Below are positions 40,618-49,941 of a DNA stretch of 49,941 bases, in pieces. The DNA is from a virus (taxonomy: Duplodnaviria > Heunggongvirae > Uroviricota > Caudoviricetes), in IMG/VR virus record IMGVR_UViG_2529293060_000008; one strand, given 5' to 3'. Every line of letters begins with the position of its first letter. Position 1 is the stretch's first letter. Made by a program: the position numbers and the translations under genes. Below the pieces are notes generated by a model. The model saw nothing but the letters and a program-made list of their open reading frames with translations, was not told where the DNA came from and made no database searches.

Positions 40618-43600
40618 ATGGGTAAAGGAAGCAGTAAGGGGCATACCCCGCGCGAAGCGAGGGACAACCTGAAGTCCACGCAGCTGCTGAGTGTGATCGA
40701 TGCCATCAGCGAAGGGCCGGTTGAAGGTCCGGTGGACGGATTAAAAAGCGTGCTGCTGAACAGTACGCCGGTGCTGGACAGTGAGGGGAATACCAATATA
40801 TCCGGTGTCACGGTGGTGTTCCGGGCAGGTGAGCAGGAGCAGACACCGCCGGAGGGATTTGAATCCTCCGGCTCCGAGACGGTGCTGGGTACGGAAGTGA
40901 AATATGACACGCCGATCACCCGGACCATCACGTCGGCAAACATCGACCGTCTGCGCTTTACCTTCGGTGTGCAGGCACTGGTGGAAACCACCTCAAAGGG
41001 GGACAGGAATCCGTCGGAAGTCCGCCTGCTGGTTCAGATCCAGCGTAACGGTGGCTGGGTGACGGAAAAAGACATCACCATTAAGGGCAAAACCACCTCG
41101 CAGTATCTGGCCTCGGTGGTGGTGGATAACCTGCCGCCGCGCCCGTTTAATATCCGGATGCGCAGAATGACGCCGGACAGCACCACAGACCAGCTGCAGA
41201 ACAAAACGCTCTGGTCGTCATACACCGAAATCATCGATGTGAAACAGTGCTACCCGAACACGGCACTGGTCGGCGTGCAGGTGGACTCGGAACAGTTCGG
41301 CAGCCAGCAGGTGAGCCGTAATTATCATCTTCGCGGGCGCATTCTGCAGGTGCCGTCGAACTATAACCCGCAGACGCGGCAATACAGCGGTATCTGGGAC
41401 GGAACGTTTAAGCCAGCATACAGCAACAACATGGCCTGGTGTCTGTGGGATATGCTGACCCATCCGCGCTACGGCATGGGGAAGCGTCTCGGTGCGGCGG
41501 ATGTGGACAAATGGGCGCTGTATGTCATCGGCCAGAATTGCGACCAGTCGGTGCCGGATGGCTTTGGTGGCACGGAGCCGCGCATCACCTGTAATGCCTG
41601 GCTGACCACACAGCGCAAGGCGTGGGATGTTCTCAGTGATTTCTGCTCGGCGATGCGCTGTATGCCGGTATGGAACGGGCAGACGCTGACGTTCGTGCAG
41701 GACCGACCGTCGGATAAGGTGTGGACCTATAACCGCAGTAATGTGGTGATGCCGGATGATGGTGCGCCGTTCCGCTACAGCTTCAGCGCCCTGAAAGACC
41801 GCCATAATGCTGTTGAGGTGAACTGGATTGACCCGGATAACGGCTGGGAGACGGCGACAGAGCTTGTGGAGGACACGCAGGCCATTGCCCGTTACGGTCG
41901 TAACGTCACGAAGATGGATGCCTTTGGCTGTACCAGCCGGGGGCAGGCACACCGCGCCGGGCTGTGGCTGATTAAAACGGAACTGCTGGAGACGCAGACC
42001 GTGGATTTCAGCGTGGGTGCTGAAGGGCTTCGCCATGTACCGGGCGATGTCATTGAAATCTGCGATGATGACTATGCCGGTATCAGCACCGGTGGTCGCG
42101 TGCTGGCGGTGAACAGCCAGACCCGGACGCTGACGCTCGACCGTGAAATCACGCTGCCATCCTCCGGTACCACGCTGATAAGCCTGGTTGACGGTCAGGG
42201 TAATCCGGTCAGCGTGGAGGTCCAGTCCGTCACCGACGGCGTGAAGGTGAAAGTGAGCCGTGTTCCTGACGGCGTTGCAGAATACAGCGTGTGGGGGCTG
42301 AAGCTGCCGACGCTGCGCCAGCGCCTGTTCCGCTGCGTGAGTATCCGTGAGAACGATGACGGCACGTATGCCATCACCGCCGTGCAGCATGTACCGGAGA
42401 AAGAAGCCATCGTGGATAACGGGGCGCACTTTGACGGTGACCAGAGCGGCACGGTGAATGGTGTCACGCCGCCAGCAGTGCAGCACCTGACCGCCGAAGT
42501 CACTGCAGACAGCGGGGAATATCAGGTGCTGGCGCGATGGGACACACCGAAGGTGGTGAAGGGCGTGAGCTTCCTGCTCCGTCTGACCGTAACAGCGGAC
42601 GACGGCAGTGAGCGACTGGTCAGCACGGCCCGGACGACGGAAACCACATACCGCTTCACGCAACTGGCGCTGGGGAACTACAGGCTGACAGTCCGGGCGG
42701 TAAATGCCCGGGGGCAGCAGGGCGATCCGGCGTCGGTATCGTTCCGGATTGCCGCACCGGCAGCACCGTCGAGGATTGAGCTGACGCCGGGCTATTTTCA
42801 GATAACCGCCACGCCGCATCTTGCCGTTTATGACCCGACGGTACAGTTTGAGTTCTGGTTCTCGGAAAAGCGGATTGCGGATATCAGGCAGATTGAAACC
42901 GCAGCCCGCTATCTTGGCTCGGCGCTGTACTGGATAGCTGCCAGTATCAATATCAAACCGGGCCATGATTATTATTTTTATATCCGCAGTGTGAATACTG
43001 TTGGCAAATCGGCATTCGTGGAGGCTGTCGGTCGGGCGAGCGATGATGCGGAAGGTTACCTGGATTTTTTCAAAGGAGAAATCGGGAAAACACATCTGGC
43101 CCAGGAGTTGTGGACGCAGATTGATAACGGTCAGCTTGCGCCGGACCTGGCTGAAATCAGGACGTCCATTACGAATGTCAGCAATGAAATCACGCAGACC
43201 GTCAATAAAAAAATGGAAGACCAGAGTGCGGCAATCCAGCAGATACAGAAAGTTCAGGTTGATACAAATAATAACCTGAACAGCATGTGGGCCGTGAAAC
43301 TGCAGCAGATGAAGGACGGACGCCTTTATATTGCGGGTATCGGTGCCGGTATTGAGAACACCCCTGACGGCATGCAGAGTCAGGTGCTTCTGGCTGCTGA
43401 CCGGATTGCGATGATTAATCCTGCGAATGGCAACACAAAGCCGATGTTTGTTGGTCAGGGCGATCAGATATTCATGAACGACGTGTTCCTGAAACGCCTG
43501 ACGGCTCCGACCATTACCAGCGGCGGTAATCCTCCGGCATTTTCCCTGACACCGGACGGGCGGCTGACGGTGAAAAATGCCGATATCAGCGGTAACGTGA

Positions 43601-44097
43601 ATGCGAACTCCGGGACGCTCAACAACGTCACGATTAACGAGAACTGTCGGGTTCTGGGAAAATTGTCCGCGAACCAGATTGAAGGCGATCTCGTTAAAAC
43701 AGTGGGCAAAGCTTTCCCCCGGGACTCCCGTGCACCGGAGCGGTGGCCATCAGGAACCATTACCGTCAGGGTTTATGACGATCAGCCGTTTGACCGGCAG
43801 ATTGTTATTCCGGCGGTGGCATTCAGCGGCGCTAAACATGAGAAAGAGCATACTGATATTTACTCCTCATGCCGTCTGATAGTGCGGAAAAACGGTGCTG
43901 AAATTTATAACCGTACCGCGCTGGATAATACGCTGATTTACAGTGGTGTTATTGATATGCCTGCCGGTCACGGTCACATGACACTGGAGTTTTCGGTGTC
44001 AGCATGGCTGGTAAATAACTGGTATCCCACAGCAAGTATCAGCGATTTGCTGGTTGTGGTGATGAAGAAAGCCACTGCAGGCATCACGATTAGCTGA
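40618..44097 (+). CDS. J: Central tail fibre / host-specificity protein J
   Basis: 1159 aa; N-terminus [54 protein letters not shown] matches lambda gpJ. Confidence 0.95.
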
Positions 44098-44164: not shown

Positions 44165-44764
44165 ATGCGTAAATTATGTACTGTTATTTTGTCCGCAGTA
44201 GTCTGGCAGGTCGCCGCTGCTACGCCAGCGAGTGCAGCAGAACATCAGTCCACGCTGAGCGCGGGGTATCTCCATGCCTCGACGAACGTTCCCGGTAGTG
44301 ATGATCTGAACGGGATTAACGTGAAATACCGTTATGAGTTTACGGACGCGCTGGGGCTAATTACGTCCTTCAGTTATGCCAATGCTGAGGATGAGCAAAA
44401 AACGCGCTACAGCGATACCCGCTGGCATGAAGATTCCGTGCGTAACCGCTGGTTCAGCGTGATGGCGGGGCCGTCTGTACGCGTGAATGAATGGTTCAGC
44501 GCGTATTCGATGGCGGGTGTGGCTTACAGCCGTGTGTCGACTTTCTCCGGGGATTATCTCCGCGTAACTGACAACAAGGGGAAAACGCACGATGTGCTGA
44601 CCGGAAGTGATGACGGTCGCCACAGCAACACGTCTCTGGCGTGGGGGGCTGGCGTGCAGTTTAACCCGACCGAATCCGTGACCATTGACCTTGCTTATGA
44701 AGGTTCCGGTAGTGGCGACTGGCGATCGGATGCATTTATTGTTGGTATCGGATACCGTTTCTGA
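44165..44764 (+). CDS. lom: Lom outer-membrane protein (Ail/Lom family, lysogenic conversion)
   Basis: 199 aa matching lambda Lom (…EHQSTLSAGYLHASTNVPGSDDLNGINVKYRYEFTDALGL…AYEGSGSGDWRSDAFIVGIGYRF). Confidence 0.95.
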   Translation: MRKLCTVILSAVVWQVAAATPASAAEHQSTLSAGYLHASTNVPGSDDLNGINVKYRYEFTDALGLITSFSYANAEDEQKTRYSDTRWHEDSVRNRWFSVMAGPSVRVNEWFSAYSMAGVAYSRVSTFSGDYLRVTDNKGKTHDVLTGSDDGRHSNTSLAWGAGVQFNPTESVTIDLAYEGSGSGDWRSDAFIVGIGYRF

Positions 44765-44915: not shown

Positions 44916-47900
44916 ATGACAGTAAAAATTTCTGGCGTGCTTAAAGATGGCACAGGAAAACCAGTACAGAACTGCACCATTGTGCTGAAGGCCAGACGAA
45001 CCAGCAGCACGGTGGTGGTGAACACGGTGGCCTCTGAAAATCCGGATGAAGCCGGACGTTACAGCATGGATGTTGAGCATGGTCAGTACAGCGTCACCCT
45101 GCTGGTTGAAGGTTTTCCGCCTTCACATGCCGGGACCATTACCGTCTATGAAGGTTCCAGACCAGGTACGCTGAATGATTTTCTCGGTGCCATGACGGAG
45201 GATGATGTCCGACCGGAGGCACTGCGCCGCTTTGAGCAGATGGTGGAAGAAGTGTCACGTAACGCCTCCGCGGTTGCACAGAATACGGCAGCCGCGAAAA
45301 AATCAGCCAGCGATGCCAGTGCATCAGCCAGCGAGGCGGTAACTCATGCAACCGATGCTGCAGCCTCAGCACGTGCCGCCAGCACGTCAGCCGGACAGGC
45401 CGCGTCGTCGGCTCAGTCAGCGTCTTCCAGCGCAGGAACGGCATCAACAAAGGCCAGTGAAGCATCGAAAAGTGCTGCTGCTGCAGAGTCCTCAAAAAGC
45501 GCGGCAGCTACCAGTGCCGCTGCGGCGAAAACGTCAGAAACGAATGCGGCAGCGTCACAACAATCAGCAGCCACTTCTGCATCCGCCGCGACCACGAAGG
45601 CGTCAGAAGCAGCCACCTCAGCCCGGGATGCGGCGGCCTCAAAAGAGGCAGCGAAATCATCAGAAACGAACGCATCATCAAGCGCCAGTAGTGCCGCTTC
45701 CTCGGCAACGGCGGCAGGCAATTCCGCGAAGGCGGCAAAGACGTCTGAGACAAACGCCAGGTCTTCTGAAACGGCAGCGGGACAGAGCGCCTCAGCTGCG
45801 GCAGACTCAAAAACAGCGGCTGCATTATCTGCCAGTGCCGCGTCAACAAGTGCCGGGCAGGCCTCAGCCAGTGCCACCGCCGCCGGAAAATCGGCAGAAA
45901 GTGCTGCATCGTCTGCTTCAACAGCCACAACGAAGGCTGGCGAAGCCGCTGTACAGGCCAGCGCAGCAGCGAGGTCTGCTTCCGCAGCGAAGACATCCGA
46001 GACGAACGCGAAAGCGTCGGAAACCAGCGCAGAATCCTCAAAAACGGCTGCCGCATCGTCCGCCAGTTCGGCGGCGTCATCGGCATCATCTGCGTCTGCT
46101 TCAAAAGATGAGGCGACCAGACAGGCGTCAGCAGCAAAGGGCAGCGCCACGACGGCATCCACGAAGGCGACAGAGGCAGCTGGCAGTGCGACGGCGGCAG
46201 CTCAGAGCAAAAGTACGGCGGAATCCGCGGCAACGCGCGCTGAGACAGCGGCAAAACGGGCAGAGGATATTGCATCCGCCGTGGCGCTTGAGGATGCGAG
46301 CACGACGAAAAAGGGGATAGTACAGCTCAGCAGTGCGACTAACAGCACTTCCGAGTCACTGGCGGCAACGCCAAAAGCCGTTAAGGCCGCGTATGAGCTG
46401 GCTAACGGGAAATACACCGCACAGGATGCAACGACAGCACAGAAAGGGATAGTTCAGCTTAGCAACGCGACCAACAGCACATCTGAAATGCTGGCGGCAA
46501 CGCCAAAGTCGGTAAAGGCAGCCTATGACCTTGCTAACGGGAAATATACTGCTCAGGACGCTACGACAGCACAAAAAGGAATTGTCCAGCTCAGTAGTGC
46601 AACCAACAGCACATCTGAAATGCTGGCGGCAACGCCAAAGTCGGTAAAGGCAGCCTATGACCTTGCTAACGGGAAATATACTGCTCAGGACGCTACGACA
46701 GCACAAAAAGGAATTGTCCAGCTCAGTAGTGCAACCAACAGCGCATCTGAAACGCTTGCCGCGACACCGAAAGCAGTGAAAGCAGCTAATGATAATGCGA
46801 ATGGTCGGGTACCTTCTGCCCGTAAGGTGAATGGTAAGGCGCTTTCAGCGGATATAACACTGACGCCGAAAGATATTGGTACGCTTAACTCAACAACAAT
46901 GTCATTCAGCGGTGGTGCTGGTTGGTTCAAATTAGCAACGGTAACCATGCCACAGGCGAGTTCTGTTGTTTCAATTACGTTGATTGGTGGCGCGGGATTT
47001 AACGTGGGGTCACCTCAACAGGCAGGTATATCTGAACTTGTTTTGCGTGCAGGTAATGGTAATCCGAAGGGGATTACTGGTGCTTTATGGCAGCGCACAT
47101 CGACAGGGTTTACAAATTTTGCCTGGGTCAATACATCTGGTGATACTTACGATATTTACGTTGCAATCGGAAATTATGCGACTGGTGTAAATATTCAATG
47201 GGATTATACCAGTAATGCCAGCGTGACGATTCATACGTCACCAGCATATTCTGCTAATAAGCCGGAAGGGTTAACGGACGGTACAGTTTATTCACTCTAT
47301 ACGCCATCAGAGCAGTTTTATCCGCCTGGCGCACCAATCCCGTGGCCATCAGATACCGTTCCGTCTGGCTATGCCCTGATGCAGGGGCAGACTTTTGACA
47401 AATCTGCATACCCGAAACTTGCAGCCGCTTATCCGTCAGGCGTGATCCCTGATATGCGTGGCTGGACGATTAAGGGCAAACCCGCCAGTGGTCGTGCCGT
47501 ATTGTCTCAGGAACAGGACGGCATTAAATCGCACACCCACAGCGCCAGCGCATCCAGTACGGATTTGGGGACGAAAAACACATCGTCGTTTGATTACGGA
47601 ACCAAATCCACGAATAACACCGGGGCGCATACGCACAGTCTGAGTGGCTCTACGGGGTCTGCCGGTGATCATACTCATGGTAATGGTATTCGTTGGCCAG
47701 GAGGCGGCGGTTCTGCGTTAGCATTTTATGATGGCGGTGGGTTCACTTATGTCCAGGATTCACAGTATCAAGTAAGCCCGGGGACTTCTTCCCGTAGATC
47801 GTATTATCAACGTATTCAGACACAGTCAGCAGGTGCTCATACCCACTCGCTGTCTGGTACTGCAGCAAGTTCTGGCGCACATGCACATACTGTAGGTATT

Positions 47901-48023
47901 GGTGCGCATACGCACTCCGTTGCGATTGGTTCACATGGACACACCATCACCGTTAACGCTGCTGGTAACGCGGAAAACACCGTCAAAAACATCGCATTTA
48001 ACTATATTGTGAGGCTTGCATAA
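44916..48023 (+). CDS. stf: Side tail fibre protein
   Basis: 1035 aa; N-terminus [60 protein letters not shown]... as lambda Stf; long Ala/Ser-rich tract, tandem fibre repeats and His-rich C-terminal motifs (GAHTHS). Confidence 0.9.
46302..46800 (+). repeat. About 3.7 tandem copies of a 132-bp (44-codon) repeat inside stf
   Basis: Units begin at about 46302, 46431, 46563 and 46695 (…[44 protein letters not shown]…); copies 2 and 3 are near-identical over about 85 nt. Confidence 0.9.
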
Positions 48024-48607
48024 TGGCATTCAGAATGAGTGAACAAGCACGGACCATAAAAATTTATAATCTGCTGGCCGGAACTAATGAATTTATTGGT
48101 GAAGGTGACGCATATATTCCGCCTCATACAGGTCTGCCAGCAAACAGTACCGATATTGCACCACCAGATATTCCTGCTGGCTTTGTGGCTGTTTTCAACA
48201 GTGATGAGGCATCGTGGCATCTCGTTGAAGACCATCGGGGTAAAACGGTTTATGACGTAGCGTCAGGGGACGAGTTATTTATTTCTGAACTCGGTCCGTT
48301 ACCGGAAAATGTTACCTGGTTATCGCCGGAAGGGGAGTTTCAGAAGTGGAACGGCACAGCCTGGGTGAAGGATACGGAAGCAGAAAAAATGTTCCGGATC
48401 CGGGAGGCGGAAGAAACAAAAAACAACCTGATGCAGGTAGCCAGTGAGCATATTGCGCCGCTTCAGGATGCTGCAGATCTGGAAATTGCAACGGAGGAAG
48501 AAACCTCATTGCTGGAAGCCTGGAAAAAGTATCGGGTGTTGCTGAACCGTGTTGATACATCAACTGCACCTGATATTGAGTGGCCTACGAACCCTGTCAG
48601 GGAGTAA
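48023..48607 (+). CDS. tfa: Tail fibre assembly protein
   Basis: 194 aa matching lambda Tfa ([80 protein letters not shown]...); ATG overlaps the stf stop. Confidence 0.95.
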
Positions 48608-48621
48608 TCATTGGGATTATG

Positions 48622-48670
48622 CCGCAGCACGTCTTAAGCAAGAACGTGCTGCGGTTAGATGCTATTTTTT
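48622..48670 (+). terminator. Stem-loop plus T-run after tfa
   Basis: CCGCAGCACGT-cttaagcaagA-ACGTGCTGCGG followed a few bases later by TATTTTTT; the same hairpin recurs at about 49670..49700. Confidence 0.45.
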
Positions 48671-49330
48671 CCCTGAAGCGGAAAACATTACTACAGTACC
48701 TTGAACCTTGGTTTTAACATTCTCGAAATGCTCTGAGAGTATATGTGTTAAGCCTTCTTCGGAATCTTTTGTGTTTGAAAAGATGCCTTTCTGATTGTAA
48801 ATGCGCATCAGTTTTTGACCGAAGCTATTGTGCACAACTCCATCGCCAAGAATTGTGGCTCCGTATAGAGTTCCATCGTCAGTTAAGGCCTGCGCCGCAT
48901 TGCGTATTACACAGCTTTTTGTAGATATATTTCCAGGCAGGCAGTGAAGAAGGTAAAACATGGAAATGGAATCAAATTGACCATGTAACGCCGCGGGATA
49001 AGGTTCAAAAACATCATGGCTAATTTTATGTTTAATTTTTGATTCCCCAGCCCTTGTAGATGCCGCGTTCAGGCTAGCTTCGTTCAAATCCATTAAAGAT
49101 ATCAGACTACTCTCAGGTACGTGAGTAAGGTAAAACCCAGTTCCAACACCAATATCCAGATGGTTGTTACCTACATGTTCCAGAAAGTGTGGAAGAAGGT
49201 GTTCCTTTGTAGGACATCCCCATGCAAGCCGATTTGATACTCCCAAAACCCACCAGTCATAAAGCTTTAGGGTAAGTGGTGTGTAAATTTTAGCCCCATC
49301 ATCTGTGTTTTTTTTCATTGATTTCACCAT
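48662..49330 (-). CDS. Class I SAM-dependent methyltransferase (substrate unknown)
   Basis: 222 aa with motif I LDIGVGTGFY; opposite strand to the tail fibre genes; flanked by duplicated tfa 3' ends. Confidence 0.6.
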   Translation of the reverse strand: MVKSMKKNTDDGAKIYTPLTLKLYDWWVLGVSNRLAWGCPTKEHLLPHFLEHVGNNHLDIGVGTGFYLTHVPESSLISLMDLNEASLNAASTRAGESKIKHKISHDVFEPYPAALHGQFDSISMFYLLHCLPGNISTKSCVIRNAAQALTDDGTLYGATILGDGVVHNSFGQKLMRIYNQKGIFSNTKDSEEGLTHILSEHFENVKTKVQGTVVMFSASGKK

Positions 49331-49386
49331 GTTATAGTTTTATTTGTGAATTAAATCAATTATGGCGATGAATTACAAGGGGTTAA

Positions 49387-49656
49387 ATGCTGCCGCAGCA
49401 TAGCGATATTGAAATAGCCTGGTATGCTTCGATACAGCAGGAGCCGAATGGCTGGAAGACCGTCACCACACAGTTCTACATCCAGGAATTCAGTGAGTAT
49501 ATTGCGCCACTGCAGGATGCTGTAGATCTGGAAATCGCAACGGAGGAAGAAAGATCGTTGCTGGAGGCATGGAATAAATATCGGGTATTGTTGAATCGTG
49601 TTGATACATCAACTGCACCTGATATTGAGTGGCCTGCAAATCCTGTCAGGGAGTAA
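49387..49656 (+). pseudogene. Tfa C-terminal fragment (duplicated 3' part of tfa)
   Basis: C-terminal 50 residues ([51 protein letters not shown]) near-identical to the Tfa C-terminus; N-terminal part unrelated. Confidence 0.6.
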
Positions 49657-49770
49657 TCATTGGGATTATGCCGCAGACACGTCGTATGCAGGAACGTGCT
49701 GCGGTTAGTTTGTGAGCTTTCGATAGTGGTTGTTATTTTTGCCCTTATTTGTTCCGGAGGCCATGGTTCA

Positions 49771-49941
49771 ATGGTCCGTCTGCCCCCTGTGGTGATGTCA
49801 GCAAAATCAGCCACTGCGCGAACCACAATAGCCCGGGAAGATGCTGAAGATCACCAGGTAAAGCTATCAGCGCAGAAACTGGAAGAACTGCTCGCATCAA
49901 TGGTTAAGGATGAGGTTGATCGCAATGATGGGATTTATTGA
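49771..49941 (+). CDS. Hypothetical protein, 5' partial (continues beyond the window)
   Basis: ORF open to the window end; in-frame ATG at 49771 preceded by GGAGG; no recognised family. Confidence 0.25.
   Translation: MVRLPPVVMSAKSATARTTIAREDAEDHQVKLSAQKLEELLASMVKDEVDRNDGIY

Follow-up and report, generated by a model that had tools for sequence, protein, structure and literature searches.

A probable ybcY–tfaX cargo module of the DLP12 type, intact and set between two tfa 3' ends of a lambdoid prophage

How a gene for an S-adenosylmethionine (SAM)-dependent methyltransferase came to be flanked on both sides by a 3' end of tfa, the tail fibre assembly gene, and what kind of substrate its product acts on, are the questions raised by the right end of IMG/VR virus record IMGVR_UViG_2529293060_000008, a caudoviricete stretch of 49,941 nt that carries a complete lambdoid prophage and is referred to as the window in the following. 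An earlier note made from the sequence alone had described three open reading frames (ORFs) here, i.e., tfa, a minus-strand ORF of 222 aa and a plus-strand ORF of 89 aa, all of which are present as it stated (Table 1), and it had read the locus as a methyltransferase moron acquired by recombination at the tfa terminator. In our analysis the region is, with a probability of roughly 0.82, the ybcY–tfaX cargo module known from lambdoid prophages of the DLP12 type, in intact form. This locus is already known, being annotated in Escherichia coli K-12 and in PHROGs (2132 and 2341), and 71% of the complete E. coli genomes carry the methyltransferase gene, so that it is no new acquisition of this prophage.

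The identification is carried by the comparison with E. coli K-12 MG1655, in which the annotation of the cryptic prophage DLP12 lists tfaD, ybcY (b0562, minus strand, pseudogene), tfaX (b0563), appY and ompT. The record of phage PhiR26_1 names the same protein YbcY, and the order of a rightward tfa, a leftward ybcY and a rightward tfaX is identical in K-12, PhiR26_1, strain 120899 and O104:H4. The window shares with K-12 DLP12 the gene order and orientation, a methyltransferase gene of ~99% nucleotide identity, the orf79'::tfa junction and the divergent spacer with TTGATT-17-TATAAC. It differs from it in three respects. Firstly, ybcY is intact, whereas the K-12 gene has lost its start codon by a 2-nt deletion. 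Secondly, the right-hand copy of the tfa end (copy 2) keeps all 229 nt and the hairpin because it recombined with the resident tfa, while K-12 tfaX keeps ~155 nt and then diverges towards appY. Thirdly, the prophage of the window is complete and is inserted in ompW rather than at the DLP12 site.

The methyltransferase gene was found in 3832 of 5426 complete E. coli genomes, in all of them at a nucleotide identity of at least 95% and in up to four copies per genome, with O157:H7 EDL933, O104:H4 and Nissle 1917 among the carriers; 1280 genomes of this set cover 80% or more of the query 48400-49941. Lambdoid phages whose tail-fibre genes are unrelated, e.g., 2G7b and ev243, have the gene as well. 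The carrier prophages of strain 120899 and O104:H4 lie in ompW beside yciE and trp, and the cassette is less than ~1 kb from the right attachment site. Homologues with 56-68% identity occur in Salmonella, Enterobacter, two Citrobacter species, Yersinia, Aeromonas, Erwinia and a Pasteurellaceae genome as solitary genes in unrelated chromosomal or island contexts, and no neighbour is conserved among them, which suggests that the enzyme acts alone and means that the context gives no clue to the substrate. The earlier note had considered that the repeats might be part of a longer tail-fibre duplication present in all relatives, with the methyltransferase in a conserved housekeeping context. The arrangement proved to be common and not universal, the duplication does not extend further, and the context of the homologues is not conserved.

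The two tfa ends form a direct repeat of 229 nt with 203 identical positions (88.6%) in a local alignment (BLAST E 1e-81) and a single 1-nt indel, which is located in the hairpin. The repeat of about 200 bp that had been noted before is thereby borne out; the limits given for it, 48453-48658 and 49499-49706, are right except that they fall ~20 nt short on the 5' side. The coding part of copy 1 corresponds to the final 177 nt of tfa, and the segment is conserved in DNA because it encodes the conserved C-terminal domain of Tfa. In a passage of PMC9608196 that cites North et al. (2019), this domain is described as the trimerisation or oligomerisation domain and the variable N-terminal domain as the part that binds the fibre. 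Of the 5426 complete E. coli genomes, 5225 gave matches to a query containing the tfa 3' segment, the median being three places per genome. Between the coding parts of the copies there are 22 differences in 174 nucleotide positions and 8 in 58 residues, with a ratio of nonsynonymous to synonymous substitution rates (dN/dS) of 0.18 and a dS of 0.41. As the divergence of 11% is mostly synonymous, the copies would have diverged within functional tfa genes and been brought together later, and the pattern indicates that they derive from two different functional tfa alleles and not from a duplication in place.

Copy 2 was compared position by position with PhiR26_1, EDL933, K-12 and PigCaeca_2, the last being a related prophage at the same ompW/yciE site with an stf of equal length, no cassette and one full-length tfa. 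Positions 49480-49611 are identical to tfaX of EDL933 and show one difference (49599) from tfaX of PhiR26_1, and positions 49597-49760 are identical to the tfa 3' end and the downstream DNA of PigCaeca_2. These identities overlap in 15 nt, 49597-49611, to which a crossover is thereby mapped, and they make copy 2 a mosaic that begins as DLP12-type tfaX and continues as the resident prophage's own tfa 3' end. The tfa of PigCaeca_2 is itself a hybrid, as its 5' part resembles copy 1 and its 3' part is identical to copy 2.

The mosaic also bears on the model of the earlier note, in which the insertion of a moron at the tfa terminator duplicated ~200 bp of the gene's 3' end in situ, with the downstream copy decaying afterwards. 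This model would account for a direct repeat that brackets a compositionally foreign antisense gene and for the lack of an insert in lambda and PigCaeca_2. However, a difference of 11.4% between the copies that is mostly synonymous is unexpected for the decay of a duplicate, the right copy starts inside a truncated foreign gene, copy 2 combines tfaX with the resident tfa, and the junction is common to K-12, EDL933, PhiR26_1, 2G7b and ~3500 genomes, so that the event is old and not specific to this phage. The in-situ insertion is thus unlikely and largely refuted, and an in-situ duplication of the tfa end as such is ruled out by the synonymous-biased divergence together with the mosaic structure.

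For the origin of the known ybcY–tfaX module we propose two steps. In an old illegitimate join at a patch of microhomology at ~49482-49495, the 5' end of the phage gene of ~79 aa that lies divergent from the methyltransferase gene would have been fused to a tfa 3' end, resulting in 'tfaX' and leaving the cassette between two tfa 3' ends from different alleles. In a second step, these copies would serve as homology arms, so that recombination with any resident lambda-type lambdoid tfa could install the cassette, the right crossover in the window being the one at 49597-49611. Recombination of one copy with the other would delete the cassette, leaving a single hybrid full-length tfa as is found in PigCaeca_2; such a loss can be scarless because an intact tfa is regenerated. 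Judged from these sequences, the tfa 3' ends can thus act as homology arms for both gain and loss of the cassette. The left boundary varies among carriers: a full tfa precedes the cassette in the window, K-12 and PhiR26_1, a tfa stub of 164-170 nt behind unrelated tail-fibre genes in 2G7b, ev243 and Nissle, and no more than the hairpin in EDL933, which has a katN–yciEFG-like insert at this place.

Several carriers and relatives deserve mention in their own right. In Nissle 1917 (NZ_CP022686.1, 3135-6025) a DLP12 remnant at the tRNA-Arg site consists of an integrase fragment, a tfa fragment, an intact methyltransferase gene of 218 aa and ompT; here the methyltransferase outlasted an extensive decay of the prophage and tfaX was lost. 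In EDL933 (NZ_CP124740.1, 2331-4544) tfa is separated from the hairpin in front of the methyltransferase by a minus-strand block with a gene for a manganese catalase and yciE-, yciF- and yciG-like genes. The chromosomal yciEFG genes beside the ompW attachment site of the window-type prophage are co-linear with this block at a nucleotide identity of 74%, and the block may be cargo caught by aberrant excision from an ompW-type site in another enterobacterium. In Testudinibacter sp. (CM131636.1, 4001-5589) a homologue with 57% identity lies at the edge of an AlpA-type phage-like island beside an ompW-family gene; its adjacency to ompW and the insertion of the E. coli carrier prophage in ompW may be coincidence. 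A match in APEC-O117H42, which covers the 5' end of the methyltransferase gene together with tfaX, was considered as a case of a full-length tfa with that sequence and was discarded, as its annotation identifies a DLP12 remnant in which most of ybcY is deleted.

To the right of copy 2 follows a remnant of a DUF4376 or tail-fibre gene, and this raised the question if the second tfa end is what remains of an alternative tail-fibre module of the invertible stf/tfa type, with the methyltransferase merely lying between the modules. Related prophages do carry invertible stf/tfa segments with a Pin-type invertase beside DinI and a small gene (also in HK225), and the remnant itself is tail-fibre-related. 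Yet in PigCaeca_2 the remnant, which is 99% identical there, abuts the single full-length tfa directly and is thus a normal neighbour of tfa. Furthermore, the repeats are direct and not inverted, copy 2 is not accompanied by stf homology, and the Tfa homology begins abruptly within the reading frame of the small gene. A second tail-fibre module is very unlikely on these grounds, and it was ruled out as a candidate by the arrangement in PigCaeca_2. Within the window, a 93-codon ORF (49660-49941) that stops exactly at the window edge covers the remnant; phrog_7703 and phrog_1141 match its residues 34-93, and RefSeq labels it a DUF4376 pseudogene with an internal stop. From the remnant it is ~0.3-0.6 kb to the right attachment site with its truncated ompW. 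From this comparison it is assigned as the native neighbour of tfa in the ompW-integrating prophage, outside the cassette, and marks its right flank.

The 89-aa ORF had been taken for a left-over C-terminal fragment of Tfa, and this turned out to be only part of its make-up. Similarity to Tfa is confined to residues ~27-89 (Pfam and phage-wide tblastn): Caudo_TAP positions 75-130 match residues 31-86 (E 6e-25), the Tfa PHROG profiles match aa 29-87 only, and this region is 45-80% identical to the Tfa C-termini of lambda, P2, P1 and Mu. The N-terminal fibre-binding domain of Tfa is absent, residues 1-31 having no Tfa homology in the Pfam and tblastn searches. Instead, phrog_3893, a family of 79 residues with no assigned function, matches residues 3-37, and phrog_2341 matches the ORF over its full length. 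In Citrobacter freundii a full-length phrog_3893-family gene of 79/80 aa is divergent from the methyltransferase gene, and its first 37 residues are 76% identical to those of the window ORF. In the DNA alignment the switch from small-gene to tfa homology falls at ~49482-49495, in a microhomology patch CAGGnA....AG. From these matches the ORF is read as an old fusion of the first ~31-37 codons of the small phage gene with the Tfa C-terminal domain (residues 32-89).

Full-length members of the small-gene family are found in HK225 (gp28, divergent from dinI), phiES15, vB_EcoS-733R5 and Klebsiella and Erwinia phages, in the cargo region behind the tail genes; in E. coli, ~3500 genomes keep the first 91 nt only and 28 have it nearly full-length (at least 80% of the query). 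The locus resembles the cargo region of HK97/HK225-type phages (tfa, a leftward dinI, the gp28-family gene, an invertase or umuD-like gene, attP) in that a phrog_3893 gene is divergent from a minus-strand cargo gene just downstream of tfa, and the order in Citrobacter, with the small gene divergent from the methyltransferase gene followed by dinI, is akin to it. The window, by contrast, has neither dinI nor the umuD-like gene, and only the first ~31-37 codons of the small gene are left there, joined to a tfa 3' end. In E. coli SC476 (NZ_LR778151.1, 1-4638) an invertible segment with stf-tfa, an inverted tfa'-stf' and a Pin-type recombinase is followed by dinI and then by a full-length small gene of the phrog_3893 family; a frameshifted gene for an S24 (UmuD-like) peptidase either adjoins the latter or is fused to it. 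Such an arrangement is probably the ancestral neighbourhood of the gene that is cut short in tfaX.

If the chimera has a function of its own, TfaX could act as a dominant-negative decoy that joins the oligomers of Tfa of superinfecting phages through the conserved C-terminal domain and spoils their side-tail-fibre assembly, with the methyltransferase as passenger. Made in lysogens from the divergent promoter, it would poison the tail-fibre assembly of competitors, and ybcY–tfaX would constitute a two-gene lysogen-benefit cassette that spreads via the tfa arms. The ORF is intact in the window with a GGGG Shine-Dalgarno-like element 5 nt upstream of its ATG, it has its own family (phrog_2341), it keeps the oligomerisation domain and lacks the fibre-binding one, and a divergent promoter for tfaX is listed in a study by systematic evolution of ligands by exponential enrichment (SELEX; PMC3946193). 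However, tfaX does not end alike in all carriers, being 61 aa long in K-12 and 101 aa in PhiR26_1 and ev243, a 7-nt deletion shifts the frame in 2G7b, most carriers retain only 132 nt of tfa homology, and in Nissle tfaX is absent despite an intact methyltransferase. Both the decoy and the two-gene cassette are extremely unlikely. Because of the variable 3' end and the RefSeq flag as pseudogene, the tfaX-type ORF is treated as a probable, non-functional pseudogene.

In the methyltransferase itself, the SAM-binding motif LDIGVGTGFY that had been noticed earlier is present as HLDIGVGTGFY; it contains the glycine-rich motif I of class I enzymes (D/E-x-G-x-G-x-G) as DIGVGTG, which is invariant across 25 homologues. 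Four Pfam methyltransferase models score above their gathering cut-offs, i.e., Methyltransf_12 with 37.5 (30), Methyltransf_23 with 29.0 (27), Methyltransf_25 with 27.7 (27) and Methyltransf_11 with 24.6 (21.2). The family profile phrog_2132 matches residues 5-222 of the 222-aa ORF to its positions 1-218 (E 4.2e-157), the aligned homologues, most of them 218-224 aa long, all align from the methionine at 49318, and the ATG removed in K-12 ybcY is the equivalent of this codon. For these three reasons the protein probably starts at the second ATG, at 49318 (MKKNT...), and has 218 aa rather than 222. An AlphaFold (AF2) model built from the 25 homologues reached a predicted local distance difference test (pLDDT) of 91.4 and a predicted template modelling score (pTM) of 0.88 and shows the alpha/beta fold with a seven-stranded beta-sheet that is typical of class I methyltransferases. 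The gene is under purifying selection, with dN/dS values of 0.11-0.29 overall: comparison with other E. coli alleles gave 0.17-0.29, that with Citrobacter freundii 0.21, and that with the homologues of Salmonella, Citrobacter braakii and Enterobacter 0.11-0.17.

Between the methyltransferase gene and copy 2 lies a spacer of 161 nt with a guanine-plus-cytosine (GC) content of 41.6%. The methyltransferase gene and 159 nt of this spacer are always together and co-linear in every locus examined, including that of Citrobacter freundii, which has no tfa repeat. On the minus strand a putative promoter consists of a -35 element TTGATT (49359-49354), a 17-nt spacer and a -10 element TATAAC (49336-49331), and an alternative promoter-like site TTAACC-16-CATAAT is found at 49386-49359. 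The identical TTGATT-17-TATAAC is given for ybcY in a genomic SELEX catalogue of constitutive sigma-70 promoters, in which binding of RNA polymerase and of H-NS in the K-12 ybcY/tfaX spacer was reported (PMC3946193). Thus, transcription of ybcY would run antisense to the tail operon and start in a sigma-70-type promoter region of its own, which is AT-rich and was reported to be bound by H-NS in K-12. If YbcY is made at all, this would be in the lysogen, where it would serve lysogenic conversion.

At the other end, tfa and the methyltransferase gene converge on the hairpin, which may stop transcription from both directions. The 'terminator hairpin' of the earlier note stands as a strong hairpin in both copies: folding of ~76 nt gave -34.5 kcal/mol (z -6.8) for copy 1 and -29.6 kcal/mol (z -3.8) for copy 2, and on the minus strand the hairpin of copy 1 reached -27.0 kcal/mol (z -5.3). 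Its identity as a terminator was an assumption, and a consensus terminator scan did not call the hairpin of copy 1 and called only a 5-bp sub-stem in copy 2. We infer the use of the promoter in vivo and termination at the hairpin from these elements.

On the nature of the substrate, it had been held that DNA, RNA and small molecules could not be told apart from the sequence; motifs, Pfam models and folds do point to a class. Bacteriophages are known to carry orphan DNA methyltransferases, e.g., the Dam-like enzymes of P1 and the T-even phages, and YbcY shares with these that it is a phage-borne SAM-dependent enzyme without a partner gene. It could therefore be an orphan DNA (or RNA) methyltransferase that protects the phage genome from restriction or alters the epigenetic regulation of the host, as many temperate phages have such genes and a few tRNA and mRNA-cap methyltransferases appear low in the fold lists. 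In contrast to the orphan enzymes, YbcY has no DPPY/NPPY or PCQ motif, no match to a DNA-methylase family in the Pfam scan and no target-recognition domain within its 218 aa; a regular-expression scan found neither (D/N/S)PP(Y/F/W) nor PC[QH] and a lone ENV tripeptide at residue 203. Moreover, the homologues are solitary chromosomal genes without restriction partners, PADLOC returned nothing significant for the methyltransferase, and no DNA methyltransferase is among the sequence, profile and fold matches in the Protein Data Bank (PDB). A role in methylating nucleic acids is accordingly highly improbable.

The fold matches are all enzymes acting on small molecules or lipids, among them juvenile hormone acid methyltransferase (7ec0), UbiG (4kdr), Coq5 (4obw), the bacterial phosphatidylethanolamine N-methyltransferase PmtA (8ys9), MM_2633 (3dtn) and DhpI (3ou2). 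Among PDB entries, sequence and profile searches found juvenile hormone acid methyltransferase (5.5e-6, family profile) and UbiG and nothing further, and the viral fold search in BFVD returned generic methyltransferases only. Since motifs and Pfam matches of DNA methyltransferases are missing and the fold matches are all of the small-molecule or lipid type, YbcY is probably a methyltransferase of this type, a class call that is reasonably firm on sequence and model evidence, and a role as DNA methyltransferase is unlikely. No individual enzyme fits it closely: the NCBIfam equivalogs score far under their cut-offs (PmtA 15.7 against 390 bits, RquA 16.9 against 175, CpaM 18.0 against 180), and the invariant residues of the YbcY family (YDWWVL, YLLHCLPG, GATILG, YNxKGIFSN) could be matched to those of no characterised enzyme. 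Our best guess for the reaction is O-, N- or S-methylation of a metabolite, a lipid head group or an exogenous toxic compound.

Some observations weigh against the overall picture of a mobile, expressed ybcY–tfaX module. The prophage PigCaeca_2 is not otherwise identical to that of the window, with ~20 mismatches across tfa, and proves the empty state and not the direction of the event; likewise, the order of the two recombination steps is one that we infer and that extant sequences cannot prove. The hairpin has no canonical U-tract on the methyltransferase strand, and the -10 element TATAAC abuts the first ATG, so that a transcript starting there would be nearly leaderless. The fold matches, at 10-21% identity and a template modelling (TM) score of ~0.6, indicate the class and not the substrate. 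Finally, K-12, the most-studied strain, carries a pseudogene, which explains why the literature is silent on YbcY. In the literature searched no functional study of ybcY or tfaX was found; it contains the SELEX promoter listing, descriptions of the locus and a negative phenotype in a Hha toxicity screen.

Morons, a concept of Hendrix and Juhala with lom and bor of lambda as examples, are extra genes between otherwise adjacent genes. The methyltransferase gene is absent from lambda and from the sister prophage at the same ompW site; in lambda the sequence past the hairpin runs straight on from tfa, and in PigCaeca_2 tfa is followed by the DUF4376 remnant. Its GC content is 41.2%, compared to 51.0% for the window and 54-57% for J, lom and stf. 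With its absence from relatives, its deviant composition and its putative own promoter the locus fits the moron concept as far as its sequence tells, and like the lambdoid morons it is dispensable for lytic growth. It differs from them in that it is flanked by ~230 bp of portable homology rather than by a bare gene boundary, that it is antisense to the late operon and that its putative terminator is non-canonical. From the reading as a moron acquired at the tfa terminator, the moron-type cargo and a recombination, located inside tfa, are retained; the gene is not private to this prophage, and the status of the hairpin as terminator stays an assumption.

Apart from the substrate of YbcY the locus is ordinary and of little discovery value, as it is already annotated and present in most E. 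coli genomes. The gene is however among the most prevalent prophage cargo genes of E. coli (71% of complete genomes, dN/dS ~0.1-0.3), and knowledge of the substrate would tell what a very widespread lysogenic-conversion gene does. The locus is furthermore a worked example of how a conserved domain-coding segment, here the Tfa C-terminal one, can serve as portable homology for the gain and scarless loss of cargo, and the chimera explains what 'tfaX' is.

Table 1. Features of the right arm of the prophage, with positions in the window.
Feature	Position	Strand	Evidence or remark
J	40618-44097		right arm of complete lambdoid prophage
lom	44165-44764		right arm, after J
stf (side tail fibre)	44916-48023		right arm, before tfa
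tfa, full-length tail fibre assembly gene, 194 aa	48023-48607	+	Caudo_TAP match; similarity to lambda tfa
Repeat copy 1: coding region of conserved Tfa C-terminal (trimerisation) domain and 3' hairpin	48431-48658	+	alignment to copy 2
GC-rich hairpin CCGCAGCACGT...ACGTGCTGCGG between convergent tfa and methyltransferase genes	48621-48656	.	RNA folding
Minus-strand methyltransferase ORF, 222 aa (longest)	48662-49330	-	ORF list
ybcY-type class I SAM-dependent methyltransferase, 218 aa (probable start)	48662-49318	-	Pfam, PHROG, identity to K-12 ybcY, fold, dN/dS
AT-rich divergent control region	49319-49479	.	co-linear with methyltransferase in all loci
'tfaX'-type ORF, 89 aa	49387-49656	+	ORF list
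Repeat copy 2: tfa 3' coding part and hairpin, mosaic	49480-49708	+	position-by-position comparison
Native DNA downstream of tfa, DUF4376/tail-fibre gene remnant (pseudogene)	49709-49941	+	PHROG, RefSeq, PigCaeca_2

The remaining features concern the tail-fibre arm. The full-length tfa was identified in a Pfam scan of the ORFs (Caudo_TAP, E 1.3e-44) and is 92% identical in nucleotides to lambda tfa. A 45-aa ORF (48580-48717) that takes in the stop codon of tfa, the hairpin and the methyltransferase 3' end is annotated in RefSeq as hypothetical protein (WP_001309429.1, strain 120899) and is most likely a spurious call. Within stf, a 132-nt tandem repeat of 3.4 copies with 88% matches (46309-46756) encodes repeated peptide units and is preceded by a long Ala/Ser-rich low-complexity stretch of the side tail fibre; the length of stf varies among otherwise similar prophages, with 3108 nt in the window and 3414 nt in strain 120899.

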